From contig NC_090360.1 of NCBI RefSeq assembly GCF_035084215.1, forward strand, positions 10,292,001-10,356,000: 64,000 nucleotides of DNA, in the 5' to 3' direction. Of this stretch, positions 4,401 to 62,899 are shown in pieces. Each line of letters starts with the position of its first letter. The first letter of the stretch is position 1. The stretch comes from Heptranchias perlo (Eukaryota). Under the pieces are notes generated by a model. That model had not been told where the DNA came from. It worked only from the letters and a program-made list of their open reading frames with translations, and searched no databases. The position numbers and the translations under genes are program-made.

Positions 4401-7400
4401 CTAAGATAGCAATTTTGAAAAAAGCTGTAGTGTCACAAATAACAAAGATTTATTATTCTCATATTAGTTTGCTCACACTTTTCAGCATAACACGTGTCTC
4501 TTTACTATCTTGTCACATCACCTTGGCTTCTTTGAATCTCTTGACTTTGACCTGCTGTGGTTAAAAATGTCTCTTGCTCAACTCACTACATTCATTTTCT
4601 GTCTTCACATTAATGACTTTTAAAGATTTTTTTAACAAGCAAACTCAAATCTGTCAACTCCAACTTCATCTCTGGTGAAATCATTATTCTTGACAACTTT
4701 GGTATTTACCTGATAGAAGTCTTTAAGATTATGAAAGGGTTTGATGGGGTAAACGTAGAGAAGATGTTTCCACTTGTGGGGGAGACCAAAACTAGGCAGC
4801 ATAAATATAAGGTAGTCACTAATGAATAGAAACTGCTTTATCCAGGGAGTGGTTAGAATGTGGAACTCGCTATCACAAGGGGTAGTTGAAGTGAATAGCA
4901 TAGATGCATTTAAGGGGAAGCTAGATAAACGCATGAGGGAGAAAGGAATAGAAGGATATGCTGATGGGGTTAGATGATGAAGGATGGGAGGAGGCTCTTG
5001 TGGAGCATGGACTAGTTGGGCTGAATAGCCTGTTTCTGTACTGTACATTCTATGTAATCCTCTGTAAATCATACTCTGTAAACTGTCCCCATCCTGATTA
5101 CCACTATGGGGGTAATTTTCAACTTTGTCACCTGGGCAGAACGGTACGAGCAGATCGCCCGCCCGTTGGAGGCAGCGGCTGATTTTCGTTCCATTGATTT
5201 CAAACAACTAACTCATCACTCAACCTACCCGTATCTCAATAATTCAACTGATCCCCTAGATCTTTTCTGATTATTTGCTGCCTTTCTCTGATTTATTTTT
5301 ACTTTCACCTGTCCTATTTAAACTTGATTGTCCTCCTGCAAAGAAATCACAAAAAGGGCTTTGACTTATGTGTGAACAGCTATTATTTAAAAGTCACACA
5401 GTCAGAATGAATGATATCACAATAGCTCAAATTTATGTTCGGAGACCAAATAATACTTGTTTGAATATAGATCATCTTATTGTCTTATTACCTGAGGGTC
5501 ATTATCATATTTCTGTTAACTAAAAGTTCTAACTTATTGCTGCTGCAACAGTTTAGAATTAGAAGTTATTACTGTATTAGTATAAAATGGTGCCAAAACA
5601 AATCTTAGTTGGCACATTGTTAGATGACTGAAGCACCTGGTACTGTGCTCACCACCGTTTAATAGCAAGGGCAAGAAAGGTAAAAAATAACACCCTTGCA
5701 ATACAAAATAATGGGAGACTATTGTGGACCCTGCACAGCCAGTTTGACTTTTCCTAATTACAGTTCAGATCATACTGAAGAACCCAGCAGCACAGTGTTT
5801 AACTGTTGTTACAAAAAAAAACTGTATGGAATATTAATTTGCTCTCATGTACAATTACAGCCACTGTTGATATTTACCACAAAATAAATTAGGAGTGCAA
5901 TTAATTTAATGTCATTTTTCAGCACATTTTTATCATGATGTTTCATTTTTCAAGTACTGGCCTCAAATAAATTAGGGCAATGTAGATCTAAAGTTGGTTA
6001 AAGCCACACTCTTTTCTGTGGTAAATGTAAAAAGTGTTGATTGCACCGCAAATTAACATTGTAATACAGTTTTTCTGTACCAACAATTAAACACATAGTG
6101 GTTGCAAAGGTCATGTGTAGATTGTACGTTAGTGTAGCACTTTGGTTGCATCACCTATCAATTCTGCTATACTCAGGAACAGATGCTGCTAAATGAATAT
6201 AGGGATCATTATATGGCCCTCTCTCCATTTTAACTTTTTTTCTTAATCGTTTTATATTATAAAGTAACTCAACTTCCTACTCACAAAAAATCCTTCCATT
6301 GTGTTACATTGGATGTAGAATAATTTATCCAACAGACGAGTAAGGTCATATTTAATATCTTACATGTGCTGAGTTAGCCAATCTCAGGTAGGGTCGTAAT
6401 GGGAACACTACAACTGAGCTTAGCATTGCCAGCGAGGGGATAAGTCACCCAGGGTTCCGGCTCCTAATCGGTGTCCAGTGCTGGTAAGTGCACGCGTGCA
6501 TGTCAGGTGAGGATATGGCGGTGGTTGGCTGTGATGCCCTCCACAGTGTAATAGTTTACTGAGGCTCACTGCCTAGTGTCATGCATGAAGATTGGCCCCT
6601 TGGGCTACCAGAAACTGTGGAACCATACCCTAAGATAATCATTCATTTCAGAACTTCAGAAAAGAGCTGAAAACTGCAGGGGGTTGGGAGGGGGATGTAG
6701 AATTAAAGAGTGCGTGTATATATCGTAAAATGGAAGGATTTATATCCAACAATTCAGATGAATGGCATTTTTGTAATCTTTTCACCTCCACAAAATATGC
6801 GAATATGTTCCCTTCGACAGGACTACATGACAATCCTTGGGAATGTGACTGCAGACTGTCAGAACTAGTTCATTTTGTTAAGATGCACAATCCAACTGCA
6901 GCATTGCTCGATCCTCGATTAACATGTTCTGGGCCAGAAAACCTCTCGGGAACTCTCTTCAGCAAAATAGAGCTAGAAAAGTGCCAGAGTCCAACTATTC
7001 ACGCCACGGAAGCTAAAGTGACCACAGTCGCGGGGAGCACTGTGTCACTTCATTGTGTGACTACAGGGGTCCCCATCCCCAAGGTCAGCTGGAGTAGATT
7101 GGATAATATCCTGCTGAATGGAACAGGTAGGTGTCTGGGCACTGAAGGTAATTTTTCAACTGGTTAAAGCATACTGAAGGGACATATGCAGTAACGATTA
7201 TTTACTTGCATTCATTCTCAATAAACTTAGTGATTGCAGCACAATTATTGAGGATGTCAACACATTGATTTTAACCAGTACACCTGCTGAAAAAAATATG
7301 GATCAAAAATAGATCTTATTAACTATATGGACATGTGGCTGTGATTACAAAATAATAATCTAATTTGGAGAATTAAACGGTGATTTTAAAACATTCAAGT

Positions 7401-9275
7401 TTGCTCTTACAGTTTAACAACTCTTGAACTCAATTGAATTACCGTCTTGAAGCCACACCCAGTGATCCATCATAATTTACATAATCCATCTGTTGCATGT
7501 TCATAAACATTGTTTTATTTTAAAAGTTTACTCCAAACTATTGCTGAGAGGTGAATGTTTACTTCTACTGTTCCCAATAGGTTTATTTTTTACTTAAAAT
7601 TTTGACATCTCAACACCCAATTAAATTGGATTGAGGATTGTAATTTAGTTACCAGTAATATTTTGTGAAACATGCCAGCTGTGGTAAATGGTGAAGACCT
7701 TGAAATTCTGTTGTGCAATAACAACGTATGATTACTTATTGCATTGATATGAAATACATCTGTCTTGCTATTTTTAGCTGCCTGCTTGACCTGTCTCTTT
7801 AAGACCACTGTTCAAGAACTCCCTGTGGTCAGGTGATCTAAGGAGGTGAATCCAGGTCATTGTAACTTCTTGTAAATTCATACGGTCAATCAAAGAGCAA
7901 TTGTAACGGGTTGTGAATTTCAGGCTTCGAGTCAGAAGAACCCAGCATGAAATGAATGACTTTTTCTCTTTTTTAAAGATTGTTTTGCAATCTGTAAGGA
8001 AAGGTGACACCTGGTTTGTGGAACATTTGCCAGATGCAAAATTGATAGATGAGGAAGAACAGTAGGCACATTTGAGTGGCTTTAATTTTTAATTAAAATT
8101 TATGTGCTAGGAACCAGTCACAAATATAATCTGAAGTGTATCATTGTGTGTTACAGTTGCAATCATTGTGTTTTACAGTGATACTGGACAATTCTGACAA
8201 GAGATTAAAGTGGTCTACACTCAGTCTATTGGCTGTATCCCATCAGGATTCTGGTGAATATTTGTGTACAGCCAATAATTTGGCGGGGACGTCAGGTGCT
8301 TCTATGTCCCTTCTCATAGTGAACTCCGCCATCGCATTGGCACCAATCAAAAGCACATCCAAAAGAATGTGGGTCAGAAAAATGAGAAATCAAAAGGCTG
8401 CAGTACACAGTAGGAAGCTGATGGCCAGGTATGTGAGTACCCTGACCACCACAGTGTCACCAAGGGCATCACCAAGGAGCTCCTATTCTATAGGTAGGAC
8501 AGATTACTTTGTCATGCGTAATCACCAGATTTATCCAAATGAAGATGCATCAGAGATTGTTTCCCAGAATATTAATCTTCCCGAAGTTAGTGGCTTATTG
8601 GAGAATCGAAGAAGCGTTGATGATCCCAACAACATAACAACTAGTCTGTCTTCAACACAACAGGAACCAGACTGTCTGGTCAGATCTGTTAGAGTTATAG
8701 GGGATACCTATCATAGTGTTTCCTTGGCTTGGAGATCCCCCAAGGCTACAAACACCACTATTTTTAGTATTCTATATACTACTTTTGGCGAAAAGGACAT
8801 GCGTAGAATAAACGTGGGCCCTGTAAAGACTAAAATTACTATTGATGGCTTAATGCCACAGACCAAATACATTGTCTGCATTTGTGTCAAAGGACTCGTC
8901 CCCAGGAAAGAGCAATGCGTGATTTTCTCCACGGATGAAGTGGCTAATGCGAGTGGGATTCAGAAACTGATTAACGCGGTGGTGATCACTGTGGCCTGCG
9001 TGATTGTAGTCCCTCTCACCCTCACTGTCTGCTGTGGGGCCCTGAAGAGGCGCTGCAGAAAGTTTCTGATTCAGCCCCCGGAAGAGGAATATCAAAACGA
9101 CTCGTATGTCACATTTGAAAGCCTGGCAACAGGGCCCAAACCAAATGGCAATGAAGGAGAATATCTGACCTGCCACAATAAAGACGAGTCCAATAGACTT
9201 CTGTCACCGCGGTCCAGTTTGGATTCTGAAGAAGCAACAAATAGTGAAGCACAACAAAATGAATATTTCTGTTGA
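1309..9275 (+). CDS. LRIT1: LRIT1, leucine-rich repeat, Ig-like and transmembrane domain protein 1; join(1309..1430,3764..4236,6821..7126,8179..9275), 665 aa
   Basis: Signal peptide-LRRNT (CPSQCIC), LRRs, LRRCT (GLHDNPWECDC), Ig, FN3, TM, C-terminal EYFC as in vertebrate LRIT1. Splice phases 2/1/1 are consistent and the 1998-nt total is in frame. Synteny with LRIT2 and CDHR1. Confidence 0.93.
2520..3300 (+). mobile_element. Highly degenerate L2-like LINE 3' fragment
   Basis: Collinear similarity to the younger copy at 52125-53315 (e.g. CATCACCAAGAC, GGAATTCTCTCCCTAA, CTCTTTGACCA). Confidence 0.6.
3300..3645 (+). mobile_element. Old tRNA-derived SINE-like repeat; related copies at about 6330-6640(+), 38180-38480(-), 41780-42125(-), 51770-52060(+), 62280-62590(-)
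   Basis: Shared blocks such as TGCTGAG(C/T)TAGCC, ACAATTGGC and CAGGGTTCC recur in all copies. Confidence 0.55.
3764..4236 (+). CDS. LRIT1: LRIT1 exon 2 (LRRs)
   Basis: TTTCAG acceptor; TVLCNNPEMTLIP...LDLSNNRL...SKLFI; donor AG|GTGGGT. Confidence 0.93.
4711..5067 (+). mobile_element. CR1 LINE 3' fragment
   Basis: Encodes LIEVFKIMKGFDGV...VVRMWNSL (CR1 ORF2 C-terminus), followed by CR1 3'UTR ending in TTCTATG-like repeats. Confidence 0.85.
5797..6092. repeat. Old palindromic MITE-like element
   Basis: Imperfect inverted arms ...ACAAAAAAAAACTGTAT...TTAATTTGC / GCAAATTAA...ATACAGTTTTTCTGT. Confidence 0.45.
6821..7126 (+). CDS. LRIT1: LRIT1 exon 3 (LRRCT, Ig N-terminal half)
   Basis: GACAG acceptor; GLHDNPWECDCRL...VSLHCVTTGVPIPKVSW; donor CAG|GTAGGT; 306 bp. 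Confidence 0.93.
8179..9275 (+). CDS. LRIT1: LRIT1 exon 4 (Ig end, FN3, TM, cytoplasmic tail)
   Basis: TTTTACAG acceptor; DSGEYLCTANN, FN3 ...TKYIVCICVKG, TM LINAVVITVACVIVVPLTLTVCC, ends EYFC*. Confidence 0.93.
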
Positions 9276-15524: not shown

Positions 15525-18500
15525 GTGAGAGTTAGGTTCCTACGGTTACTGAGTACCATTCCGTGAAGTTTGTGGATAGATATTTTAAATAAAGATCGTT
15601 TATATTTCTATTTTTTTTACAGGAGTTTGATTTGCATGACTTCCGCTTTGCGAAGAATACCAGAGAATATTCCACCAGATGTCACAAAAATCAGAATAGA
15701 AAATTCTCATTTGGCAGAATTACCTCGTGATGCATTTTCCACAGCTCGTGCCTTGGAAAACCTGTGGCTGAATTTTAATGACATTACACTCATGCATGCT
15801 AAGAGTCTGCAAGATCTGAAAAATCTGTCAGAGTTGCGACTACAGGGGAACAAATTGCGTTCAGTACCATGGACAGCTTTCCAGGACAGTCCAGCTTTGA
15901 CAATTTTGGATTTGAAGCACAATAGACTGGACGTTCTTCCAGAACACGCACTGAGGTATCTTACTAACTTGACCTATTTGGACATATCCTTCAATCAGCT
16001 TACAGTGATTTCTGGAGACGTGTTCTTAAACTGGCCCGTCTATCAGAGAACACAACGGCGTGAGGGTCGAGAAGAGAGTATCTCCAACGCTGTCCTGGCT
16101 CTCCATGACAACCCATGGCTCTGTGACTGTCGCCTTAAAGGTTTTGTACACTTCGTCAAATCCATCAGTCCCCCTATTATTCTGATGAATTCTTACCTAT
16201 CCTGTTCAGGCCCAGATTCCAGGGCAGGGAAATTTTTCTACGCAGTGGAACTGAAAAGTTGCTTTAAACCGTTAATCACGTCTGAGAACACGAACATTAG
16301 TGTTTCGATTGGAGAGAAGGTAAATTTATCATGTGAGGCTAAAGGAAATCCTACCCCTACAGTGTGGTGGACAAATGGTGTGAAGATAATTCGGAAATTT
16401 AATGGTATGGTAAACACGCTATTGCCACTATCTGAAAGTTAGACATTTTTTAAATTTTACAATAGCAATTGTTTGTAAAACTGTATTCTGACAAATGAAA
16501 GCCATAAAGTCTACCTGCTTTTTATGAGATGGCTTTTGAGTCTAACAGAAGTTTAATTTACAAATCATATAGTCATATATCTCGTGATTTATAAACGAAT
16601 TAAATTGTGGTTATTTACATGTATAATGCAAAATCTTGCATATAGTCTCACTTCCTGTAAATGTCACGCTCACTTCCTGCAATACTTTCCTGGGCACCTT
16701 TTGTTGGTAACACCCCTATTATAAAACAACAGTTCCTCTGACTCACCATGAGCAAAGCCTTGAGTATTCAGTAATATTGCTGCTCTGATGTTAAATTCTA
16801 CTGTACTATTGCACCTGCGCCATCACAAACCAGTAATGTTCTAACTAGTTCAGTTGCCTGCAGCACCATAACATCTCATGAAGAAAGATGAGGAAAATAT
16901 AGTTTGCATGCAACAAATGGTCAGGGGATGGATTGTAAACATTTGTGATGTTCTTTAACTGGTTTGAAATCAATTTACCATCATAGCGATGGAACATCTT
17001 CCTTTATTTTCAGGATAAATCAGGTAGCACTTTCATGACCATTGTACTACCAGTTTTGTGTCAACGCAAAGTGATTTCAGGTGCACAGCAACAGCAATTT
17101 CACTGTAACACGTTGGGAGTCAGAATTCCTTTTAATTTCTAAGTGCAGTTAAAGTGAGAATTGTGAGACCATCTGTAGTAGGTAGTCTTGTCTCATTTGG
17201 GCTTAGGACCTGGTGTAGTATAACTCCAACCCAGGGCAAAGTCAGATTTTAAAAGTATCCAAGCAGTCCAGTGGAGGGCTAAGGCACTTGTTAAAATCAA
17301 CATGTTAGGAGAGAGCCCAGACTCCCACCTGCTCTCTCATCACATTACAAATTAGGCACCCAGAAGGCTCAATCTGTGAAGCCAACCACACCTAAAGAGC
17401 CCTTTTTTGTTGCGCTCATTGTGACCTGCTATGATTGGTAGTAGAATGGATACAATGCAGTGAATGTCCTAACTAGCTAATTAATGAGTTGAGTAAAACT
17501 TATTTTTAAAAGAATGCAAGAATGTTGGAATGCAAAAGAAGACAATTCATCCTACCCAACTCACTTTGTCATCAAAGTCATGTTTCTGTACCTGATGTGA
17601 CCATATTTCATCTTCCTCTACTTGTTGCTGAATCATAAAATGAAATCTATTTTATTTATTTAGTCTGAGCAACATTACAGACCTAAATAAAAGTCACTCA
17701 GGAAGGCGGGGAGAATTGGAGGGATAGTTGTTCATGCACATATCCTGCCAGGCAGCTAAACAACAGTATTGATAGAGGCCCTGGAGCATGTGTTTCTCTT
17801 TATAATATTTGTTTTTGGGATGTGGGTGACACTGACAAGGCCATGTTTATTGGCCATCTGTAGTTGCCCTTAGAAGGTGGCGGTCCTTCTTGAAGCAGCA
17901 GAATTGCTTCTACTACTGAATGGTTTGCTAGGCTACCTCAGAGAGCATTAAGACTCGTCCATATATACTTTTGACCAGGAAGGGTGCCTGTGGGGAGACT
18001 CTTCAGGGAGTAAAGCGGGAAAAGAAATAAATGTTTAAAAAATGCATGTGATGGTTGTAAATGGTCCAATCGAAGTGGATTTGAACAATTGTGTCTCAGC
18101 ACAATTCCATATCACTTCTCAGTCTCCGAGAGATTGAATAGATGGTATAGAAAGTAGGAATAGGAATATTGCATTACTGCAGTAACAATGTTTTCTAAGG
18201 CTAAGCTACTTATCAGTGAAGTGGAATGAAGATCAACTGTTTATGGTCCATGCCATCCATGAGTTTGAAATGTTTCACTCTTAGCATGAATGCAAAGCAG
18301 GTAAAATGTTCACTTTTGTAGAACTGTGTTCCCTGCCCTTGACAATACACCCGTGCATTGAAAAAAATGTCTAATATTAATAAAATAATCCTTGAAAAAA
18401 AATGTAACTGTGTCATGTAATGCTCTATTCTGAGCTATTTAATTAAAGATGTGTTTTAGTTACCCTGAGCAAAAGGACATCCTGATTAGGAATTAAATGA

Positions 18501-19558
18501 AAAGCTGGTTCTTTTTTAAGGAAGCAATCTTGTTCTGGCTTAGCTGAAACTTTTTGAGGGAGGGGAAAAGACTGACCATACAGATAAGCTCCAAGGAAGC
18601 TTAAGACCCTTACCATTGTCATTTGACTCTTAATGTTTTTTCTTTGAGGTTATGGTGGGAATGTTGGCGATATACATTTTATTAAAACTAATGTTAATAT
18701 TTTGCAATTATGGAAATGATGTAAGTAAAACAAATCTTTGAATTAATTACAGTGACTTTCACAAATATTGATGAAGAAACAGTGAAATCAGAGCTGGTGA
18801 TTCCATCAGCACGTGGTACAGATGGAGGAAATTACATTTGCACTACTACTAACTATCTTGGAAACTCATCTGTGCAAATCATGGTGAAAATTTTAACTTC
18901 AGAAACTTTACCTATCCCATCATCCTTGTCCCCTTCATCCTCGGAAGAAGAGAATGTTTATATAGATGTTAGGATTGCAAAGCAGATGGTATATGGCATA
19001 ACCCTGGAGTGGTATGCAGCAACACAGAACCCTGCTGAGACCTGGTACACCCTGCACTTTGGGAAATTTGAAGATGCTAAATTGGAAACGATTTACATTG
19101 GACCAGGAGTAAATACTTATACAATTAATGATCTGTTTCCAGCAACAAAGTACAAGGTGTGTGTGGCACTGAGGAACCAGTCTCCGAAAAGAGGTCCATG
19201 CATTGTGTTTGTTACAGGCAGTGATATCAGTGAAATGGAGCAAAGAGAGAAACTCATTCACATTATAGTCATTGTATGTGCCATGGTTCTGGTAGTCCCA
19301 GCTGGAATGTATGCCTGCACGACAGATGCCCGTTTCAACTGCTTTGACAAATGTGGCAAGTTTTGTCGAAGACAAAGACGAGGAAAGAAAACACTGAAGA
19401 GAGGAGCACGGGATGTCACCTTTGATAGTTTGCAGACAAGCAGCGATGCTGAACTCTGCAACAGGAACTCCAAGGAAGACAGGACAAAAAGTAAAAAATC
19501 AGATGACAAAACTCACATGGACAAAACAGAGCACAAGAATAGTGATGAATTGTATTAG
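15418..19558 (+). CDS. LRIT2: LRIT2, leucine-rich repeat, Ig-like and transmembrane domain protein 2; join(15418..15524,15623..16404,18753..19558), 564 aa
   Basis: Signal peptide-CVAGCSC-DSFGRSLIC, LRRs, LALHDNPWLCDC, Ig, FN3, TM. The 3-exon layout and position between LRIT1 and CDHR1 match LRIT2; 1695 nt in frame. Confidence 0.93.
15623..16404 (+). CDS. LRIT2: LRIT2 exon 2 (LRRs, LRRCT, Ig half)
   Basis: Poly-T ACAG acceptor; 782 bp; donor ATG|GTATGG. Confidence 0.93.
18753..19558 (+). CDS. LRIT2: LRIT2 exon 3 (Ig end, FN3, TM, tail)
   Basis: TTACAG acceptor; DGGNYICTTTN, PATKYKVCV, TM LIHIIVIVCAMVLVVPAGMYAC; ends NSDELY*. Confidence 0.93.
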
Positions 19559-21709: not shown

Positions 21710-23606
21710 AGGAAAGTTCAGAGGGGAAGTGAAAAAGGAAATAAGAGGGGCAAAGAGAGAGTATGAGAATAGACTGGCGGCCAACATAAAAGGGAATCCA
21801 AAAGCCTTCTATAGGCATGTAAACAGTAAACAGATAGTAAGAGGAGGGGTGGAGCCGATTAGGGACTAAAAAGGAGATCTACTCATGGAGGCAGAGGGCA
21901 TGGCCAAGGTACTAAATGAGTACTTTGCATCTGTCTTTACCAAGGAAGAAGATGCTGCCAGAGTCTCAGTAAAGGAAGATGTAAGTGAGATACTGGATGG
22001 GCTAAAAATTGATGAAGAGGAGGTACTAGAAAGGCTAGCTGTACTTAAAGTAGATAAATCACCTGGTCCAGATGGGATGCAACCTAGGTTGCTGAGGGAA
22101 GTAAGGGTAGAAATTGCGGAGGTACTGGCCATAATCTTCCAAACATCCTTAGATATGGGGGTGGGGCAAGAGGACTGGAGAATTGCAAATGTTACACCCT
22201 TGTTCAAAAAAGGGTGCAAGGATAAACCCAGCAACTACAGGCCAGTCAGTTTAACCTTGGTGGTGGGGAAATTTTAGAAACGATAATCCGGGACAGAATT
22301 AGCAGTCACTTGGACAAGTGTGGATTGATTAGGGAAAGCCAGCACGGATTTGTTAAAGGCATTTTGTGTTTAACCAACTTGATAAAGTTTTTTGATGAGG
22401 TAGCAGAGATGGTAGATGAGGGCAATGTAGTTGATGTGGTATACATGGACTTTCAAAAGGCATTTAATAAAGTGCCGCATAATAGGCTTGTTATCAAGAT
22501 TGAAGCCCATGGAATAAAAGGGGCAGTAGCAGCATGGGTACAGAATTGGGTAAGTAACAGGAAACAGAGAGTAGTGATGAACGGTTGTTTTTCGGACTAG
22601 AGGGAGGTGTACAGTGGTGTTCCCCAGGGGTTGGTACGAGGACCTCTGCTTTTCTTGATATATATTAATGACTTGGACTTGGGTGTACAGGGCACAATTT
22701 CCAAATTTGCGGATGACACAAAACTTGGAAGTGTAGTGAACAGTGAGGAGGATAGTGAAAAACATACATTCAAGGCTGGTGGCATGGGAGGACACGTGAC
22801 AGATGAAATTTAATGCAGAAAAATGCATTTCGGTAGGAAGAATGAGGAGAGGCAATATAAACTAAAGGGCACAATTCTAAAAGGGGTGCAGGAACAGAGA
22901 GACCTGGGAGTATATGTATACAAATCATTGAAGGTTTCAGGGCAGGTTGAGAAAGGGGTTAAAAAAGTATACGGGATCCTGGGCTTTATAAATAGAGGCA
23001 TAGTGTACATAAGCAAGGAAGTCATGATGAACCTTTATAAAACATTGATTCGGCCACAACTGGAGTATTGTATCCAGTTCTGGGCACCGCACTTTAGGAA
23101 GCATGTGAGGCCTTAGACAGAGTGCAGAAGAGATTTACTAGAATGATTCCAGGGATGAGGGACTTCAGTTACGTGGATAGACTGGAGAAGCTGGGGTTGT
23201 TCTCCTTGGAACAGAGAAGGTTGAGAGGAGATTTGATAGAGGTATTCAAAATCATGAAGAGCCCAGACAGAGTAGATAGAGAGAAACTGTTCCCATTGGC
23301 GGAGGGCTCAAGAACCAGAGGACATACATTTAAGGTGATTGGCAAAAGAACCAAAGGTGACATAAGGAAAAACTTTTTTACACAGCGAGTGGTTAGGATC
23401 TGGAATGCACTGCTCGAGGGTGTGGTGGAGGCAGATTCAATCATGGCCTTCAAAAGGGAACTGGATAAACACTTGAAGGGAAAAAATTTGCAAGGCTACG
23501 GGGGAGTGGAACTACCTGGATTGGTCTTGCATAGAGCCGGCATGGACTCGATGGGCCGAATGGCCTCCTTCCGTGATGCAAACTTGCTATGATTTTATGA
23601 TTCTAT
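21710..23606 (+). mobile_element. 5'-truncated CR1 LINE (about 1.9 kb), ORF2 reverse transcriptase disrupted by stops and frameshifts
   Basis: KSPGPDG, NYRPVSLT, QHGF, YMDFQKAF, SGVPQG, FADD, RPQLEYCIQFWAP; 3' CTATGATT repeats; possible TSD AATAAATA (21702/23607). Confidence 0.95.
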
Positions 23607-30048: not shown

Positions 30049-30940
30049 TGGGCACGATTTTAACATTGAAAAACGGGTGGGTTGGAGGCGGGGGCAACGA
30101 AAATCGCACCCATTTTAGACCCGCCCCTAACCCGCCTCCAACCTGCCCATTTCTGGTATTCACCTGGGTGGGACAAGGGGTGGGCAACCAACCCGTTCCA
30201 AGGAGATGGGTTGGTGACTAAAACCTTTCAAGGAGGCTGCGGGCCTCCATTTTTACAGATTTTGCAATTTCAACCCTTGGGGGCTGGGATTCCCGGGCCT
30301 TCTCCTTCACGCCGTGTGAGAGAAGGCGAGAAGGCCCAAAACTGCAGCTGGGTGCTCTTCTAGCACAGCTTGTGGGCTTGGAGGAGCAAGAGTGCTTCCC
30401 CCAGGCCCAACAAGCCTACCTGCAGCCACCCCCCAATGATCGCAGACCCCCGTGATGACCCCCGATCCCGACACCCAACCATCGCGGACCCCCGTGATGA
30501 CCCCCGATCCAGACACCCCCCCCATGACTGACCCCCAATCCCTCCCCCCATGAATGACTCCCCCACTGTGAGCCCCATGCCCATCATTGCCCAATGCCCT
30601 CCCATGCCAATCAGTGCCCCATGCCCCTATGCCCACCCATGCCCAACCCCATGCCCACCCATGCCCCATGTCCATCCACGCCCCCTCCCCCCATCCATAC
30701 AATTAAAGTTTTATCTGAAAACTTACCTTTACACATCCTCTCCTGGCTGCTCTCCCGTCCGATGGAGGCTAGCCTGTCAATCAGGCCGGCCAGTCGGACT
30801 GCAAACCAACAACAAAAATAAAAGACATCCTTACGTCAAAATCGTAAGGACGTCCGGGATACCCGCACTTCCGGGTTTCCCATCCGCAATTTGAACCCCC
30901 CCCCAACCCCTCCTTCCCTGCTCGGGGTCAAAATCATGTT
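30049..30940. mobile_element. Non-autonomous Harbinger-like element with internal C-rich tandem repeats
   Basis: Ends GGGCACGATTTTAAC / GTCAAAATCATG; internal (CCCATG)n and GACCCCCG repeats; homologous to 54856-55652. Confidence 0.7.
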
Positions 30941-30995
30941 TTTGACATATGTAGAAACCATCCGTGAAGCATTTCAATCACAGCATGTACTTGAT

Positions 30996-31001
30996 TTTAT
31001 T
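30996..31001 (-). terminator. Candidate polyA signal for canonical CDHR1 terminal exon
   Basis: AATAAA on minus strand about 15 nt past the stop codon. Confidence 0.35.
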
Positions 31002-31016
31002 GTAACAAAAAACATT

Positions 31017-31580
31017 TTATAAGTAAAGTCTAGAAGCATCTTCATTCATTTTCTTTTCCAGGCGTTGTTTGAGCTCTGAGACCAGGGCACTGTTGATGTT
31101 CGATGTCTTGCTTTTTGACTGCTGAGGGATATAGCTCCTTTTGGGACTGAGAGATCCTGACACCGTAGGCAGATTCCAATCTGGTTTGTTGAGTGTGGCC
31201 GGGGGTATAGTCGGGGGAGGAGGAAGCAAAGGTGCACATGGCAAAGCCAGAGGAAGGGCTGGACCGTTTTTGTTAGTGCTCACATTCTGCAAATATTGGT
31301 TAGCCTCGGAAGTCATGAAACCAGTTGTTTTTTTGGTGGATTTCTTACTTCGGAACCATCCCACTCTGTGAGTCTGCGACTGATGGATCGGCCTCTTCTT
31401 TATGATACGTCTCACAGGGCCAACTCTATTGGACTTTTTGTTCCGCCAAAACATGATCGTTGAAATTAAGATCGTAAGAATCACAAAAAAACAAACTATT
31501 CCAGCTAGCACTCCTAGGATTTTCATAGGATTATCTTTAGATTGCAACAAAAAGTTTGCCATATGCCCATTTCCAGAAGT
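31017..31580 (-). CDS. CDHR1: CDHR1 exon 17 (canonical TM and cytoplasmic tail)
   Basis: [27 protein letters not shown]...[11 protein letters not shown]...PTVSGSL...[10 protein letters not shown]; TTTTGCAG acceptor. Confidence 0.93.
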   Translation of the reverse strand, partial: TSGNGHMANFLLQSKDNPMKILGVLAGIVCFFVILTILISTIMFWRNKKSNRVGPVRRIIKKRPIHQSQTHRVGWFRSKKSTKKTTGFMTSEANQYLQNVSTNKNGPALPLALPCAPLLPPPPTIPPATLNKPDWNLPTVSGSLSPKRSYIPQQSKSKTSNINSALVSELKQRLEKKMNEDASRLYL

Positions 31581-34500
31581 CTGCAAAAGAGTACAAAGAA
31601 AACAAGTGATTTAGTCCAAAGGACTAGCTTCTTGATTTGTACAACACATGTGTACCGTTCATTAGATATCCCATTTTGAATACAATTTTCTCAAGTGTAC
31701 AAAAGCCACACTCGTTCCCTGGATCACACTCATCCAAAGTGTTTTATTGGTCTACATTGTGGAGCCAAATCCAATAGTCGGGGAATGGAGTTTGTCTCCT
31801 GCTTTCAACTAAAACAAGCACCAGGTCGCAAGGTTGATTTTCAGTTAGTGTGTAATGTAGATTCATTTACTTATTTGTTGCTTTTGTGCGTTTTAAAGGT
31901 TATTTTTCTTCCCCAATTTTAAGTCCTTAGATCATTATCCAGCTGAGAGTTGGATAAGCAACCTGCTCCTTGGCCTCTACCAAAGTCAGCTTTAAGCCAC
32001 TCGTTTAGATGTGTGTGAGCCATCCAGGGTGACTCACCTGTGAGGAGGCACCTGCCTCAGATAGAATGATGACCAGGATTAGAAGCTTGCCATATGGGGG
32101 AACCATGGAGCAAATTGAGAAAACTGTGGCCTATTCAGTGGCATAACACATTGGAGAATCAATGCAGCTTGTTGCCATGCAGCCTGGTATACACCCAGTG
32201 CAAGGTATGCAGCCAATGACCGTCACAATGCAAATTTAGTACAAGTTCTAAAATTCCACCCATCGGTGATTCCCATTGACTTTTTGCACTCTTGCAAAAA
32301 AAAAATCATTATTCTGAATGATTCCACTGCACGGAAAAACAAAATCCATCACACATCCATTTATTATTACTTCTGTACTCTTTTACAGACCTGCACAGTG
32401 TAAGTATTGGAAGAGGAAATAAAAATGTTTTATGTGTCTCATCCGACATATTGAGGATAAGTGGATGTGCAGTCCTGCACCACCAGAGAACGGGCACTAA
32501 TCAGCCACTTTTTTTTTGTGGTGGTCTCTTGACAATTTTTCGGGCCATGCAGCGTGGATGTGTTCTGGATCTTTTTGCGGTTTTCCAGAACATCAGGCCA
32601 GACATAATTACTGTTAGAGCAACAATGAGGATGATCATGCTCACACAAATCCTAAATATTCTCCATGGCTGGTTCCTTAGGCCCAAAATAAAAGTGTTTA
32701 GTCTTGATTTAATCTGGAAATGTTAAAACACCAGGTTTCAGTAACTCAGAGCAAAGTGTTTGGTCAAACTTATGTTCTGAGGTCAGTTTGTACAACTGTG
32801 TGACATTCAGATGTTAACCCGTCCTGACACTAATGTTTTAAAGCAATGTGGTTAACAGTAAAATGAGCAGTAAGATAGAATCAGCAAAGGAGGCGCTGGA
32901 TAAAATGTTAAGAATTACTTTTTTTTTCTACCTTAACTTTCTTTGCTTAAAGTTTGGGTTAAAAACACAAGATTAAAAATTACTTTAAAGGATATTGGCT
33001 GGTTTGAATTTTTACCCCAACGAGCCTGAGGTCAGGGTTTTCTGCTTGTACACTGGCTACTACAGGATTGCCCCCACTGGCAAGTGGAGAAGTGGAAAAA
33101 CACAGCCTATATGGAGAACTTTAACCATTTACAGACACTCCAAACAGTTCAGTTTAAAAGCTGCCTTCATAGCACTTGAGATTCCATCTATAAGATATGA
33201 ATTTCATTCAATTCTATGAACATTTCTTTGATTCCATAATGAACATTATTGTTTATTTTTTAAATTGTTGTATATTATGGACCAAACCACTACTGCAAGA
33301 CTAGAACTGAGGCTTTCCTGCAGAAATATTTCTGAGGAGAAAATGGCAGCTTCCTCTTTGAGTCACAAGTAGCCTGAGCACTCTCCGTCTAAGCCCAGCC
33401 TGTTGATGGCACACGAGCGCAGGAAATAAAAATTCCTCACTCTTTCCACCTAATTTTTCCATTTCAGTTTGGAAAAAAGTCAGATCTGTGCATGTTGAGA
33501 CCCATAATAGGCACCCGCTACAGAAAAAGAAACCCTCAAGTCAGCATATTCGGTGCACCATAGGGAGACTTGGAAGCCCTATCGCTGAGGTGCGCCAGGT
33601 CATATCTGATGTCGGAGCACTGATTACTAATCGATGGATGCAAAAGGTGATGGAGATCTTCTGTTGTTCTGAATTAGTGCTCTCCACCTCAGTGACTCCT
33701 CCAAACCTGACAGATTGTAGCATTTTACTCTTGCATTCTTGCACAGTTTATGTGTACAGCTTCGGGGAACATATACTTACCTCTTCTGTAATATCGATCC
33801 TCACAACAGCTGTCGTGCTGAATGAAGGAGAACCTCTGTCCTTAGCTTGAACTACCACAGACCACTGACAGTCTTTGTTTCTGGTGATGTTGTGAATGAC
33901 CTCCAGAGATTTGATGTAGGACTTCAGCACTATCTCGCCAGTGGCTTGATCAATGTCGAAAACGTTGGCTGGATCTGCTTGCATTATCGAGTAATCTACG
34001 ACATTATTTGGCTCCTCTGCATCTTCATCTTTGGCCTGCAGTAAAAGTTTGATATACACAACACAGTTCATCAGATCACTCCAAACACTCACACAGAGGG
34101 CAAGATGTTGGCACCAACACTGCTTGTTATCCAGCTGAACTGCAAATGTTTCTCATCTGTGCAGTGGGACAAAACAATTTCCACCTCTGCCGAGTGCTAG
34201 CTGGCAATTTTAATAAGATTCAAATCGGATGGCAGGCATTTCTCCTCCCCCCCCACCTTAGCTGCATTGGCTGCCATCTTGCAATGGAATAATTGGTCTT
34301 GAAGCCGATTGGGAGGCACCAGGTTCTCACTTGTTTTTTTAAATCTTTCCACTTTGAAAATAATCGCAGATGTGCTATGGTGATCTTTGTTTAATGGGGA
34401 GAAAGGACCGTAATGTATTTAATTTTAAACCCATCCTCCTCAGTGAGATGTGTTCTCAGTGTGGCAATTTTTGAGATTTTTGGTCTCGAGGAAAATTAAG

Positions 34501-49500: not shown

Positions 49501-52500
49501 AATCTGCCCTCTCAGGTGGACATAAAAGATCCCATGGCACTATTTTTGAAGAAGAGCATGGGAGTTCTCTCTGGTGTCCTGGCCAATCTTTATCCCTCAA
49601 CCAACATCAGTAAAAAAAAAATCAGATTATCTGGTTATTATCTCATTGCTGTTTGTGAGATCTTGCTGTGAGTATATTGGCTGCCGTATTTCCTTCATTA
49701 CAACAGTAACTACACTTCAAAAGTACTTCACTGGCTGTAAAGTGCTTTGGGATTTCCTGGTGTCAGGAAAGGCGCTATATAAATGCAAGTTCTTTCTTTT
49801 CTTTATGTCAAATTTCATAAATACTCCTTCTGATTGGTTGAGAAAAGGACTTTGAAACCAGTTTACACCCAACCAGAAGGCTCATTTTACATGAAGTGTC
49901 CAAATTCTGAAAATGGGCAATGAGCAGGTGCGGACAGGGGCAATGGCTACGTCTGAAAGGAAAGACAAATTAGAGATGAAATAAGAGAAAAAAAATGATA
50001 AAGAAGGGGTAAAGCAGAAATAACATTTTGCAACGAGCTTTGTCTGGGATATTAATTAATGCTACAGCAGTAAAGCCACAATTCAGTAGCAAGTAATTCT
50101 TGTGTTTCAGGGTGTCAAAAGCAAAATGTTAAAAATGGCTACGGCAGATATCACAAAATGCTCCGTACATATGCTACTCTAAGTGTTCATTTCCAGCAAG
50201 TGTTTGAATTAACTCTGATTATTTATTACTTTATATTCTTGATTGTTCTTTCTGAATTTCACATCTGTTCATTCTCTAACTTTCAGCAATATCTGGGAGT
50301 GCAGACAAGAGCTGCAGATTCCCCCAGTGCTCTGATGCATGTGTTGGCAGATGGGTTTGGAAATTGAATAGGAGTAGGCCATTCTGCCCTTTGAGTCTGT
50401 TCTGTCATCTCAATGTATCTTAACTCCATCTATCTGAATTGGTTCTGTAACCCTTAATACCCCTGCCTAACAAAAATCTATTAATCTCAGTTTTTGAAAT
50501 TTTCAATTGACCTAGCTTCTTGTGGGAGTTCCAGATTTCCACTACCCAAGTAGAATTGCCCCAGTCATGACAATAATTATTGGCAAATTCTCATCACTTT
50601 TTCCTCAACTGAGGATGAACTTCTTCTCACAGCTTGGCTTTGAATTCTTCGCACAATAGAAGGGCAGCCATCTTAGCTGAGCCCTGGCCATGTGACTGTC
50701 AAATGTAAACACATCCACTTACAATAGTGAATGAGCATGTGATGGGTCACAATCCAGTACTTACAGGCTGTGTATCTTCATATACATATCCAAAATATGG
50801 TGTGCCAGCAAATATGGGAGGGGTGTCCTGAATATCCACAACATTGATCGTTACGGTGGTTGTAGAAGAGCAAATTTGATACTTTCCTCTCAGCCTCCCA
50901 CCTCCATCCTAAGATAAAAGTAAAGTCAAATTTGCATTTCTTATAGATGCAACAAACTCACTAAACTTCATTTTCCCCTCTGTGCTGTAAAATTGTCAAC
51001 ATACTTTCGCTACAACAGTGACAAAATGAGCCCTGGACTTCTCGAAATCCAGAGATATACTTGGCTTTATTCGAAGGACCCCGCTGTATCGGTCCATTGA
51101 AAATTTGTTTTTACGCATATTCTGGAAGAGGTAAGAAAGAAGGAGCATCAGTTCAGTGTTGAGAACCAACAAGGAAAATCTAAACTGTTAAAATAGTTCA
51201 ATGATGAATAAGAATTAATTTCTTTAAAAAAAAATAAGGTAAAGTTCATATTTAAAAATTCAAAAATAGATGACTTATTATTCTTAAAAGCATGGTATAA
51301 ATAGAATGAGAGTAATTTTAACTTTTGGTGATAGTATAAAATGGGCAATATCAGATTGGCCACCTGTTTTCCATGTCTCCCGATTTCCCTTTCCATGAAA
51401 GTCAACGGAAAGGGAAATCAGGAGAGGTGCTTAACAAGCAGCTGATCTGAGATCATCCGTTTTACACTATCGCCAAAAGTTAAAATTACCCCCAAGACCT
51501 TCTGGTCACTGGTACATGGAAAGTATTTCAATCGTGACCCTTGTGACTTGGGATGAAAGTCTTAAACCACTCAGTTATTTCCCGTGTCCTATGGTGAACT
51601 AAGGGTGATGTTTACATTCCCTTTAATTCTCCTCAGTCTCATTCTTCCAGCTGAAATAGATTAATTTCATGCCAAATTAAGTGACATTTTTCTTTCTCTT
51701 CTGGTGTCCAAGGTATGTTAGGCTGTTACGAAAATAAGTTGTAATTATTTCTGTAGATTATTCCAAAACAGAACGTGTGCTATCTTCAGATGACTCACTG
51801 GATAAGTTCACGATGTGGAGCGGTCCTGAGCCATGTGACCAGGTACTCTCAGGTTCTATCCTTGGTGCTCATCTCAGTTGGAGCTGGGTGCTGCAATTGG
51901 CCTCAGTATCTCTGGTTGAGGGATGGGAAAAATCAGCCAGGGTCTCTTTGTGAGTGTGGCTGTTGGCTCAGGATAGTACTGAACTCAATGGTCAAATTCT
52001 CTCTTAATTCGCTGACCCTCACTATCCAGGTGTGTATGTGAAGAATGAGCATTTGGATGATTAAAAAAGGGGGTTATTAATAGGTTCTCAAATTATTGCA
52101 TTCTTAGGATTTTATTAAATATCCATGTTGACAACACCACCCTCCTCCAACGCCTCTTCTCCGTCGTCCAGCTGGGTGGGACTCCGCTCGCCTGGTTCCA
52201 TTTTTATCTATCCAGTCGTAGCCAGAGAATCACCTGCAATGGCTTCTCTTCCCGCTCCTGCACTATTACCTCTGGAGGCCCCCTTGGCCCCCTTGGCCCC
52301 CTCCTATTTCTCATCGACGTGCTGCGCCTCCGTGACATCATCCACAAACACAACGTCAGATTCCACATGTACACTGACGACACCCAGCTCTACCTCACAA
52401 CCACCTCCCTCGACCCTTCCACTGTCTCTCATTTGTCACATTGCTTGTCCAACATCTAGTACTGGATGAACAAAAATTTCCTCCAATTAAATACTGGGGA

Positions 52501-55500
52501 AGACCGAAGCCATTGTCTTTGGTCCCTGCCGCAAACACCGTTCCCTATCCACCGGCTCCATCCCTCTCCCTGGATACTGTCGAAGGCTGAACCAGACCGT
52601 TCGCAACCTTGGCGTCCTATTTGACCCTGAGGTGAGCTTCCAGCCACATATCCACTCCATCACCAAGACCGCCTACTTCCACCTCCGTAACATTGCCCGT
52701 CTCTGCCCCGCCTCAGCTCATCTGCTGCTGAAACTCTCATCCATGCCTTTGTTACCTCTAGACTGGACTATTCCAATGCTCTCCTAGCTGGTCTCCCATC
52801 TTCCACCCTCCATAAACTTGAGCTCATCCAAAACTCCGCTGCCTGTATCCTAACTCACACCAAGTCCCGTTTTCCCATCACCCTGTGCTTGCTGACCAAC
52901 ATTGGCTCCCGGTCCAGGAACGCCATGATTTTAAAATTCTCATCTTTGTTTTCAAATCCCTCCATGGCTTTGCCCCTCCCTACCTCTGTAACCTCCTCCA
53001 GCCCTACAACCCTCCGAGATCTCTGCGCTCCTCCAATTCTTGCCTCATGCGCATCCCCGATTTTAATCGCTCCACCATTGGCGGCCGTGCCTTCAGCTGC
53101 CTCAGCCCTAAGCTCTGGAATTCCCTCCCTAAACCTCTCTCTCCTCCTTTAAGACGCTCCTTAAAACCTACCTCTTTGACCAAGCTTTTAGTTACCTGTC
53201 CTAATACTTCCTTATGTGGCTCAGTGTCAAATTTAGTTTTGCTCCTACGAAGCGCCTTGGAATGTTTTACTACGTTAAAGGTGCTATATAAATGCACGTT
53301 GTTGTTGTTGCTGTTAATGTAATATGATTATGATTATGATTAAGGATTAAAAATATCACATAACTCAAGATAACTTTGTTAGAGTCTTTACCATATTTCA
53401 GTATCTGCCTCCTTCACTACATAGTTGCTCTGTCTGTTTGTCTCTCTCTCTCGAAAAAGGCACTGAATATTTCCACAGGCTAATGCGTGCTCTGCCCTTT
53501 TGAATTCCCGCAGCCATCGATATTATTACTGTGATGTCAAGTCACAATATCATAACTACAAAAACAGAAGGTGCACCTTGCATAAATGTGGTTTCTTTTG
53601 CTCTATTTTGTTAAATTATTCTATTTATGTGTAAAAGGGTCACATTGCCTCTCTGATTTATCGTGTGAACAGTGCAAGGATATTTTCATAAAAAGAGTCA
53701 ATAATTATGCATTGGATAAATCATACCTGTAGAAAGTAGGTGACACTGCCTCCAGACCCATTATCTTTGTCCACTGCATGTACTTTGAATATGCTACTTC
53801 CTGAAGGTATGTTCTAGCAGTTCCCAGTCCAAGAAAAAACATTAGGCATAAGAAGCTTTGCATTGAATACTTGTCAGTCACCAATTAAGGAATTTACAGT
53901 TCTGAAAAGAAACTTACCTCAGGGACACTAATGATATAAGGTGTCTTAATAAACTCTGGGCTCTCATCATTGGCATCTGTTACAAGTATTCGAACCTTTT
54001 CGACAACCTGTAAACACAAATACAAACATAAACACAGCTATCATTGTGCGCTGGAAGAAGATTTTGCAGACCTGTATCCATGTTACCTGAAACCTCATTT
54101 AGAAAGAATTACAGAACAAAACAATATCACAAATTCTATACATCACATACACTAAAAGCAATAATTCAGGAAAATATTTTTCCTTGAGAATAATTTTGAC
54201 AAAAAGCCCTCTGGTGATAATACAAAAATGGAACGCTCACCCTGAATGTACCTGAATTATTGTGTTCTGAAATAACACTATATACATTTAAAAGGGTCCA
54301 TGCATGTTACATTGTTTCTCAGGCAGGTATTCTCAGTACTAAGCAGGCACTTCTAAATGAATGAAGAGTGGTAGAATTATATCAAATGCTAGTTGCAGAA
54401 GTATTTCTCAAATCAGTTCATAAACTGAACACACATCATTTTGCCACTTTAAAATGATTTTGTTCGCCCAAGGAACTGTACTGGCTAACTATGATATTTC
54501 TAAGAAGTTGTAATGAATCACAAGATTGCTCCTACAAATCATAAAGGTCACAAATCATTGAGAGCTCTGTCCAAAGCCACGTTCTTAAGGAAAGGAATGC
54601 ATGGCCACTTTGATCTTGAAATACTTTTTTTTTTGGTTTAGTAAAGGATGTCTGTGATTCAAAGTGGTTGCTGCTTTGTACTTTGTTTACTTGGGCTGGT
54701 GCTGTAAGAGTATTATCCTCTTTCAGTGTTTACGTATGTGCTGGCCTTCTGTGCAAACCAGGAGGATTAGAGTACAGAAAGCTAGCAGTGGAAAAGGCCC
54801 TGATGAGATTACTGATACCCAGTATTTAGCACAGACTGCGACCTTTTCAAACCATGGAGTAAATTTTAACCCCACGAACGGGTGGGTTGGGGGTGGGTGG
54901 GAGGGTAAAAATTGCAAAAAAATGTAAACCCCAACCCAACCCGCGCACTTCTGGTTTTAACGGAGGTGGGTCAAGGAGCGGGCGACCAACCCGCTCTCAG
55001 GAGGCAGGTCAGTCAGTAAAATCTTTTAAGGAGGCTGTGTGCCTCCATTTTAACAGCGTTTTTATTTTTAATTCTTGGGGGCCTTCTGTTTCACGCCACG
55101 TAAGAGGAGGCGAGAAGGCCCAGATCAACAGGTAAGTGCCTTTATTGCACTGCTTGTGGGCCAGGAGGAGCAGGAGTGTTTCCTTCAGGCCCAACAAGCC
55201 TACATGCTGCGATCCCACACACCCAATCAACCGAACCCCGCCCATGTTTGACCCCCCCCCCCCCAACGATCTCTGACTCTCCCCCCACCACGAGCTCTGA
55301 CCCCCCCCCTAATGTCCATGACTGAGCCCCTGATGACCAACCCCCCCATGACTGCCACTCCTGGTGACTCCCCCATGACCCCTGACCCGATGACTCCCCC
55401 ATGACCCCTGACCCCCCCCCACCATGACTGAATCCCACACCCCACCCTGATCTAAGACTTACCTGCTGGCATCCGATCCCTGGCTGCTCTCCCGTCCAAC

Positions 55501-60720: not shown

Positions 60721-62899
60721 TTACATGATTGGGGACCCTTCCCCCTTCCCAAAAAAACTCCCAAAAATGCTTGGGGTCATCACGATAAATAACCATCTCG
60801 GTAAGTTTACAGAACCGAAAGCATTGCTGAATTTTCATTATCAGTCCTTACATGTGAACAATGCAAAATTATCATTAATGAGGATGAGTAATAACGGAGA
60901 CATTTCTCAGGTGAAGTTTAGGTTTCTGCAACTTGTTCCTTTAACTTTTTGAATATCTTTTGTTTCCAATGTTTAATACGTATGCATGGCGGTAGCACTG
61001 TGTCCACAGATAGCTGATCGAGCTTTCGCCCTCGAAACCGTGAAATGCTCTAGCTTTGTGGGCAGTAGGTTATGTAATATTTGCCCTTAGTTTACTGCAT
61101 TATACCACTTAAAGGGGCACAGTCTTCACAAAAAAAAAGCAAACAATAAAGTAAAAATGTGCAAAAGAATAAACGTCCAAAAGAATAAAGCTGTGCATTG
61201 AACAAAGTGCAAAAATGGAACCCTGAAACTCATACATCCAATTATCTGAAAATCAATCCCAAACGACCACAACTGAGCTCGTAGAAAAAGAAAATCTACG
61301 ATTTTCATTAGGCCCCGGTTTTTGGTGCCGAAAGCAATGCCTGTGCATTTCTCGGACAACCCACAGGGAGTCACCGAATTACCATATTTTGGTACAATGA
61401 AAAAAAAGAACTAGCACTCTTCACATCTTCAAGATGCCTCAAAAGCGTTTCACAACCAAATAATTGTTTTCGAATATGTAGTCACTGTTGTTTTGTAGGC
61501 AAGCGTGGCAGCCAATTTAAGCACAAGTAGGCCTCAGCAACAGCAAATGAAAATAATGACTGGCTAATCTGTTTTGGTGGTGTTGATTGAGGGATAAATG
61601 TTGGCCAGGGCACCAGGAGAACTCCCCTGCTCTTCCCCTGCGTATTCTTCAAGCATTTCACAATTTTGTGTTAATTTCCTGTTAAAATTGCTTTTATTAA
61701 AATAGTTGATGAATTTGTGAATATGTGCTCTGTGATACAAAATAATGCCGTGTAGATCATTGACCTTATATTTAGGCATTTGAAGAAATGCAGAATGTGG
61801 GAAGTTTTTTTTAATGATGGCTTCATCATATAACCCACAACGTTCAAGCACTGCCATTTACTCCCTCAATGCAAAGAAAGTATCCGCCAATTTATTGCAG
61901 TTTATAACTTATTTTCATTGGGTTTTCACCTCTTCTGAACCGTGCGAGACTATTCCAAATTTATTTCCACATTCCAGTAATTAAGAACCGGGGATTCCAG
62001 CACTGAATGAGTTGAATATCGCAAAAGCTGCTGTCCTATTCTGTGAGTCGGTACGAAACAGAGAAACTGCATCATTGCAGCCATCAAAATTACAGCAGGA
62101 TTAAAACAACCAAATGGTCCGTCCAATCTTGTCAGGTGGTGTTCTGCATCCCTGGCAACAATCCTCCAAATAGTTTCTCACCAGACAAACTAAAATCCCA
62201 TTGGTTTTGGATGTTTCAATCTGAAAAAGAAAACTGGAAATTATCATATTAGTTTCATGAATCAATAAGCTTTTTATTCACCTTATGAATTTTCTCCTCT
62301 CCTTGTGGTGCGAACTCCTTGCTGGTGTACAGTTCTATGGGCACCAATCATTCTTCAGTACCTTGCCCAAATGGCCATTATTCATTAATGAGTCTTGACA
62401 ATGTCCTGTTTGGCCGCAAAACAGCATTGCAGTCAAGCCCAATCCTGTACTTAGCTGACAGCCACGTGTTCACTTGTAGCAAGGGTCACTGAATGGCAAT
62501 CAAGAGAGGACACAATTTTCCTCCTGAACTCAGAGGAACTAAGGCTGATTGTGATGTTCTTGTTTTGTCATGAACAGTTGATCCCCAATCAGAAATCATG
62601 AGAATAGCCTTGAAAAAGTCCTGAATTTTAGCCAGGAGTTGTCAAGATACAATTCTGTGTCTATTCTGATTCTGATAAGACCCAGCTTATTCCTGCACAG
62701 AAAAATAGCCCAATAGCTGAAAAGAAATTTATATTGTTTTTGAAAGTGCCATGAATTTATAATTTGTTATGTTGGCAGAACTTGGACCGACATGGTTTAG
62801 AATATAGGAGCAGGAGTAGGCCATTCAGCCCGTCGAACCTATTCCACGTGGTCTGCATGTGGATGTTAGGACAGGGTGGAGGGTCCTATGGGCTATGTC

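Follow-up and report, generated by a model that had tools for sequence, protein, structure and literature searches.

The last intron of CDHR1 in the sevengill shark Heptranchias perlo holds a second membrane-anchor exon, here called 17a, which, judged by its encoded peptide, is an intact, diverged tandem duplicate of the canonical last exon, 17b. It likely serves as an alternative last exon giving a 752-aa cadherin, and a predicted RNA helix would hide the 17b acceptor and so likely help to set the ratio of the two forms. What is new here is the helix; the isoform itself is already present in pipeline models and is apparently unstudied. CDHR1 is a cause of human cone-rod and macular dystrophy, and its main nonmouse models are zebrafish and Xenopus. 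Throughout, the window is the whole stretch of 64,000 nucleotides that was analyzed.

Two paralogous membrane-anchor exons in CDHR1

The window contains a complete CDHR1 gene on the minus strand, starting at 60509, whose exons match the RefSeq protein of H. perlo almost letter for letter (Table 1). Exon 17a comprises 70 codons in phase 0 followed by TGA at 32503 to 32501, and since both last exons are in phase 0, either is compatible in sequence with the same exon 16 junction. The first-pass annotation had described a phase-0 exon with a good acceptor, a stop codon, and a downstream AATAAA. The exon, stop, and signal all lie on the minus strand where it placed them, and an acceptor is present before 32713 (...TTTTAACATTTCCAG), but that acceptor is only moderate and weaker than that of 17b (11 of 17 pyrimidines with a longest run of 4, compared with 14 of 17 and a longest run of 7). 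The lengths it had given for the two isoforms, 752 aa with 17a and 869 aa with 17b, are consistent with the 682 residues common to both forms in other sharks. Only 2 of 342 acceptor-like sites on the minus strand of the window open into a frame of 50 or more codons with a strong hydrophobic stretch, namely those of 17a and 17b. Exon 17a is predicted to fold as an amphipathic stalk helix and a long membrane helix separated by a proline break (mean pLDDT of 73). Neither exon matches a Pfam family, a PDB search with the exon peptide returned only generic membrane helices (E values of 0.1 to 0.2), and the ESM Atlas gave generic cadherin membrane-tail clusters and nothing more specific. Near the signal peptide, at window positions 59812 to 59768 (minus strand), the RefSeq model of the Heptranchias gene is 15 residues longer than the models of other sharks (884 versus 869 aa), probably reflecting choice of an upstream acceptor at exon 2.

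Table 1. Positions of CDHR1 3′-end features in the window
Feature	Position	Strand	Evidence
Exon 16, end of cadherin repeat 6, common to both isoforms	33781..34035	-	Donor GTAAGT after 33781; joined to 31580 in RNA-like contigs X1 and X2
Exon 17a acceptor, moderate polypyrimidine tract	32714..32733	-	Sequence
Exon 17a coding part: 15-residue basic amphipathic stalk, Pro, transmembrane helix, ~27-residue basic tail, TGA	32501..32713	-	Sequence, orthologues, predicted fold
Predicted helix, 5′ arm, in 17a 3′ UTR, with the only UGUA (32387) of the 200 bases after the stop	32372..32392	-	Pairing; teleost translated trace in 4/10
Exon 17a AATAAA (32365-32360) and GU/U-rich downstream stretch, just inside the helix loop	32330..32365	-	Sequence alone
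Predicted helix, 3′ arm: polypyrimidine tract, AG, and first 4 bases of 17b	31577..31597	-	Pairing; translated trace C[AT][LP]LQ in 7/7
Canonical last exon 17b, coding part: stalk, transmembrane helix, 142-residue tail with Pro-rich, PTVSG, and ALVSELK motifs	31017..31580	-	Sequence
Exon 17b polyadenylation signal	30996..31001	-	Sequence; X1 contig end at 30987

The 17a and 17b peptides are 28% identical over 64 residues, with a BLOSUM62 score of 100 that lies beyond chance (maximum of 48 in 2,000 full shuffles and of 73 in 5,000 shuffles keeping the stalk, transmembrane, and tail blocks). The ungapped 47-residue alignment on which a duplication had initially been proposed holds, and homology continues for 15 residues past a 3-residue gap. 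A six-frame search of the 3.25-Gb genome with the 17a peptide returned itself and 17b (E = 5.8e-4) and nothing else below an E value of 8, and at the DNA level the two exons share only a weak 38-nt match. In an unrooted tree of 54 exon sequences picked to span taxa (29 of 17a and 25 of 17b, over 69 columns), 17a was split from 17b with support of 100/100, and sharks, ray-finned fish, and tetrapods fell on each side. If the root lies on that branch, the duplication is therefore older than the split between sharks and bony fishes. The root was left unplaced because a 50%-cluster search returned 20 matches, all 17a- or 17b-like and none fit to serve as a jawless-fish outgroup. The shark 17a stem in this tree is long (0.63).

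By these relationships, we classify 17a/17b as a C-terminal substitution derived from tandem exon duplication, of the kind described for NECTIN2: the exons are tandem and homologous, share an upstream junction and phase, and are ancient and conserved, with the 17a joint seen in proteins of other species. Like CDHR1, NECTIN2 is an adhesion molecule with two homologous transmembrane-plus-tail ends, which the available text of PMC8373072 describes as chosen by alternative polyadenylation and dates to jawed vertebrates, the same depth as the CDHR1 event. CDHR1 differs in that each end is a single exon, that the short tail has no shared C-terminal motif, and that the pair seems to be lost in mammals. 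The first-pass annotation had instead likened CDHR1 to PCDH15, and the likeness holds insofar as one cadherin ectodomain carries alternative C termini in sensory cells. The CD1 to CD3 tails of PCDH15, however, are not known to be duplicates and follow one shared transmembrane exon, whereas in CDHR1 the exons are paralogous, each has its own membrane helix, and the stalk and helix are exchanged along with the tail, which makes that comparison loose and NECTIN2 the closer parallel. PCDH15b is itself a reported partner of Cdhr1a (PMC13090022, available text).

Conservation of exon 17a across jawed vertebrates

Relatives of 17a were gathered with the 70-residue peptide, with one shark/ray homologue, and then with a 14-sequence profile. 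The exon 16-17a join occurs in 104 of 243 stored proteins (some of them repeats of one species); together with the 100/100 split, this supports, and extends, the earlier proposal of an old exon duplication kept by selection as alternative last exons. Named models ending in 17a come from three elasmobranchs, bowfin, gar, sturgeon, eels, cyprinids, cods, many percomorphs, and frogs, including both Xenopus species, and among amniotes from python, girdled lizard, softshell turtle, and birds, including emu. The frame-preserving conservation that the first-pass annotation looked to in other species thus extends from sharks to birds. Most of these proteins are pipeline models, and RefSeq/GenBank models named “cadherin-related family member 1 isoform X2/X3” represent the same isoform (e.g., XP_048419205.2, XP_031762259.1, and XP_026655543.1). 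Automatic annotation already lists an isoform of ~750 aa, uncommented, in many species; paralogy, age, and helix form no part of this pipeline output, and no such model is annotated in H. perlo. Three unnamed 17a proteins of 707 to 747 aa sit on assembled contigs of only 2.7 to 3.0 kb, too short for the unspliced gene, and hence would come from spliced transcripts.

The window 17a peptide is 71 to 75% identical to 753-aa “isoform X2/X4” models of zebra shark, basking shark, and electric ray and, among the top matches, 39 to 56% identical to bony-vertebrate orthologues. Between zebra shark and emu and between bowfin and emu, identity is 59% and 75% for 17a, 68% and 75% for the paralogous part of 17b, and 34% and 43% for the 17b distal tail. 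Among bony vertebrates, 17a is 64 to 75% identical, the matching part of 17b 75 to 81%, and the distal long tail 43 to 47%. Sharks are more distant (50 to 62% for 17a, compared with 65 to 68% for the matching part of 17b), and the window copy of 17a is likewise less conserved than the matching part of 17b (72 to 77% versus 79 to 92%). Nine columns are invariant among 14 17a sequences.

No named mammal was found among the 120 listed of 278 matches, the 84 profile matches (from candidates capped at 7,999), or the cluster members listed (15 of 44 for the amniote cluster), and CDHR1 is absent from the curated human catalogue of 236 duplicated-exon swaps in the available part of PMC8373072, in which the controls NECTIN2 and GNAO1 are present. 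Taken together, these absences make loss of 17a in mammals likely. Missing short models in skates, chimaera, bichir, and lungfish were not counted as absence, since the intact 17a of Heptranchias is itself unannotated. A cichlid-type sequence in the amniote cluster also bears a ferret label from one source, evidently a mislabel. A human CDHR1 isoform 2 of 745 aa (NP_001165442.1) is reported in the available text of PMC6201214; like the 17a form, it diverges after exon 16, with the first 680 residues in common, and ends in a 65-aa tail. It is not listed as homologous by human curators, no mammalian protein is among the 17a profile matches, and the likeness is one of layout.

Several models depart from the two-form pattern. 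In long-form models of three lizards (P0088, P0098, and P0099), 17b starts with four added residues, IKSR, the same as those that open 17a (window positions 32713 to 32702), which suggests that squamates may also use the start of 17a as a 12-nt microexon via an internal donor; the shark 17a has no GT at the corresponding site. The models of one cod paralogue (P0159) and a burrowing owl gene (P0188) both end in 17a and have no isoform suffix in their names, and so the short form may dominate there or be the only form modeled. Two Narcine models (P0008 and P0013) are annotated read-throughs in which exon 16 is joined to the retinal G protein-coupled receptor RGR and both anchor exons are skipped.

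The suffixless cod model is also the one observation that favors a further idea of the first-pass annotation, that teleost cdhr1a and cdhr1b each retained one of the two exons. In an ectodomain tree (57 rows, FastTree), however, short and long forms occur in each of two euteleost paralogue clades (support of 96 and 98), and both paralogues yield a short form in perch, darter, and cod. The tree has no named zebrafish row, and so neither clade was assigned to cdhr1b. For the euteleosts sampled, the partition is refuted, and we consider it almost certainly wrong.

A predicted RNA helix and the proposed use of exon 17a

A repeat scan of the last intron found a 17-nt inverted repeat (32374 to 32390 and 31579 to 31595), and the helix predicted there has 21 uninterrupted bp, including 3 G-U pairs, at -31.5 kcal/mol, with its 5′ arm 6 bases before the 17a AATAAA. 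We regard it as a previously unremarked candidate RNA switch. None of 500 dinucleotide shuffles of the intron matched its energy, and the longest helix in 60 shuffles was 16. Pair probability is ~1.0 over 16 pairs in a 920-nt fold, and the core pairs close an 861-nt fold. Among 16 acceptor sites tested, several of the controls being only approximately placed, this was the longest uninterrupted helix, followed by one of 17 bp with 5 G-U pairs; the control acceptor at 51121, whose purine-rich partner is broken, had a duplex energy below that of the helix (-37.2). The 17-nt pattern occurs four times in 3.25 Gb, two of these being the helix arms, and is not a repeat.

Conservation of the helix was judged from noncoding flanks translated in miscalled protein frames, not from DNA alignments. 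Translated from the window, the 5′ arm gives VCKRV or SVKEY. Of 10 teleost frames that continue beyond the 17a stop, 4 carry VCKRV, SVKEY, or SVKEN, with both paralogues represented (0 of 5,000 shuffles as good), and in one of them the arm lies as far from the stop as it does in the shark. The other 6 frames are without the arm, some being short or liable to truncation by a stop. For the 3′ arm, the window translates as CTLLQ, a finch model has CTPLQ, and six fish-like frames, two of them almost identical, have CALLQ. C[AT][LP]LQ is found in all 7 frames running into 17b, whereas the 17 frames running into 17a share only [FL]Q. Given these translated traces, both arms look conserved across jawed vertebrates, apparently from the ancestor of sharks and bony fishes. 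The arm substitutions in the teleost frames include an A-to-G change that gives at best a G-U pair and, in SVKEN, an implied mismatch, with no compensatory change evident in these frames. Farther upstream, the window reads SPLD where five fish-like read-in frames have SPM[DN], and conservation thus reaches ~40 nt upstream of the 17b acceptor. A small hairpin (6-bp stem) lies just upstream of the 17b arm, at window positions 31612 to 31626 (minus strand), near the likely branch point.

Long-range pairing of this sort has precedents. In Drosophila PGRP-LC (PMC6191721, available text), it is tied to choice among duplicated 3′ cassettes, as proposed here for CDHR1, and among human conserved complementary regions (PMC8052449, available text), some pairs mask an acceptor together with its polypyrimidine tract and others place a polyadenylation site in the loop, as predicted for CDHR1; CDHR1 itself is absent from five supplementary files of the latter, which may not include the full pair catalogue. 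Unlike docking-site/selector systems, CDHR1 would have one helix joining the polyadenylation region of the first exon directly to the acceptor of the second. Competing pairings of the docking-site/selector type were considered and, for the acceptors and last intron of this shark, rejected: no uninterrupted partner of the 17a acceptor exceeds 12 bp, and the last intron has only one strong helix.

For evidence of use, we compared contigs of four runs with window positions 30700 to 34300; none of the runs is on record as RNA, X1 and X2 are RNA-like, and X3 is from a related species. The first-pass annotation had proposed looking for the junctions 33781 to 32713 and 33781 to 31580. The canonical joint was found in two runs (X1 and X2), a canonical loose end in one, and no CDHR1 contig in one, and there was no joint into 32713 in the contigs of the four runs, one contig in X2 and one in X3 being unbroken across that position. 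Contigs drop rare variants, and so the missing joint does not prove absence; 17a is at best minor in the contigs of these runs. For the Heptranchias protein identical to the window gene, annotation lists just the long form. Contigs of X2 and X3 extend over the entire last intron at depths (38.6; 30.6 and 8.4) far below that of exon 17b and leave the adjoining stretch of intron 15 uncovered. This coverage might fit a slow last intron, whether the helix masks the 17b acceptor or acts as a brake; retained last introns are common in polyadenylated RNA, and contig depth is a poor measure, which tells against reading a brake into it. Listed indels relative to the related species spare the coding part of 17a, accounting for 48 of 49 gap letters in the contig piece. 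The related-species contigs span window positions 31557 to 33810, and read-through of exon 16 there would stop after 10 codons, giving a secreted ectodomain.

We propose that exon 16 would be joined to 17a, the transcript then being cleaved at the 32365 AATAAA, or would skip 17a and be joined to 17b. Once polymerase has passed the 17b acceptor, ~780 nt farther on, the arm in the 17a UTR would pair with that acceptor and delay it, and the weaker proximal acceptor and its polyadenylation site could then compete with the stronger distal one. Melting of the helix would lead to the long form, the dominant one in the contigs seen. The 752-aa form would have the same ectodomain with a new stalk, membrane helix, and short basic tail.

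Since the helix also covers the UGUA beside the 17a polyadenylation signal, the direction of its effect is not fixed by sequence. It may be that 17a is used and that the helix acts in the opposite direction or as a brake, masking the UGUA or bridging cleaved pre-mRNA in favor of 17b, or detaining the last intron. This UGUA is the only one near the 17a signal, the signal lies in the loop, a layout for which the available text of PMC8052449 proposes suppression of intronic polyadenylation, and both the dominance of the long form and the intron coverage in X2 and X3, which the intron 15 stretch lacks, could be read in the same way. However, the helix buries the polypyrimidine tract and AG of 17b, which should hinder 17b, and we consider such a brake unlikely. 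That 17a is functional in bony vertebrates and decaying or silent in this shark lineage seems less probable again. The contigs of the four runs have no junction into 17a, the exon is unannotated in Heptranchias and absent among the matches listed for most other cartilaginous fishes, the shark branch is long, and the window 17a has a Thr at an otherwise hydrophobic position of its [RK][IVL]xP motif. Against decay stand an intact frame, stop, acceptor, polyadenylation signal, and helix arm, the 71 to 75% identity to the annotated isoforms of other elasmobranchs, and the indels that avoid the coding part.

The dominance of the long form where seen and the absence of any distal motif from the short form would also suit a 17a that serves mainly as a dosage valve, removing long-form mRNA, with a short protein that matters little. 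Such a valve would not need residues of the stalk, helix, and tail to be kept for more than 400 million years at rates like those of the paralogous 17b part, with nine invariant columns among 14 sequences, nor would it account for retention of 17a in both teleost paralogues, and we find it very improbable. The reading that we prefer remains that of an alternative last exon with a helix that masks the 17b acceptor.

Two likely forms of the CDHR1 protein

The short tails (89 distinct) have ~24 cytoplasmic residues, compared with 138 in the long form, and no shared C-terminal motif. Stalk net charge is +4.7 in the short form and +1.0 in the long form, and the membrane helix of 17a has twice the Ser/Thr of the long form and usually a Cys. 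The Pro-rich, PTVSG, and ALVSELK motifs are found in 73, 80, and 82 of 84 long tails, respectively, and in none of 103 short tails. Both forms have a basic stop-transfer segment and an [RK][IVL]xP motif after the membrane helix. Motifs of the [RK]VxP type act as ciliary signals; the match after the helix is loose in both exons and does not discriminate between them.

In the available literature, ectodomain cleavage is reported in mouse CDHR1, is apparently dispensable in Xenopus, and has been hypothesized to be rod specific, and Siah1-driven turnover is reported for zebrafish Cdhr1a. The available text of PMC7719784 puts the Siah1 degron at residue 857, beyond the end of the short form. The pattern as printed there matches none of the 103 short or 84 long proteins, and a 7-residue variant occurs in four long proteins. 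The “VmP” core of the degron resembles the juxtamembrane site, where 22 of 103 short tails have VxP, which makes its place ambiguous; we therefore do not claim loss of the degron in the short form. Differences in cleavage and turnover would be encoded in the swapped stalk and the missing distal tail. The short form would keep ectodomain adhesion but would no longer be coupled to the long tail's partners and turnover signals, and ectodomain shedding may be altered by its more basic stalk.

We found no discussion of 17a or the helix in the open PubMed Central and bioRxiv literature; subscription papers, including the original 2004 shedding study, might mention the isoform. Neither is described in the available text of PMC13090022, bioRxiv 2020.08.23.263780, PMC6201214, PMC4642573, PMC7339444, PMC6191721, PMC8052449, PMC7335077, PMC12840604, PMC7917623, PMC5539332, PMC8373072, or PMC7719784. 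The word “isoform” is absent from the available text of PMC13090022, PMC7719784, and the Xenopus preprint, which treat CDHR1 as one protein with one tail, whereas the gene has a further membrane-anchor exon in frogs, fish, and birds. Antibodies to the ectodomain and knockouts of early exons would not tell the two forms apart, and single-cDNA rescue and binding assays test one. The questions of rod-only cleavage and of the difference between frog and mouse become testable isoform by isoform. The helix, if confirmed, would be a compact and very old RNA structure linking the polyadenylation site of one exon to the acceptor of the next.

We can only speculate on a broader scheme, improbable though not negligibly so, in which a single gene ancestrally gave jawed vertebrates two photoreceptor cadherins, with a 450-million-year-old attenuator-like RNA helix as the switch between them. 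Of these, the long form would be the shed, rapidly turned-over rod-disc tether known from mice, the short form would be stable and unshed and would tether cone outer segments to calyceal processes, and the short form and the switch would have been lost in mammals. If true, this would explain differences among frog, fish, and mouse CDHR1 in localization, cleavage, and knockout phenotype.

The wider locus has several features of its own. Two LRR-Ig-FN3 genes at window positions 3732 to 9272 and 15567 to 19555 (plus strand) lie tail to tail with CDHR1 and are presumably the LRIT pair of the human locus; RGR is not in the 64-kb window. Upstream of the CDHR1 start is a tandem repeat (62828 to 63655) whose open frame is made up of repeating units, and several LINE-like reverse-transcriptase fragments, identified by eye, occur at ~21870 to 23589 and 52061 to 53319.
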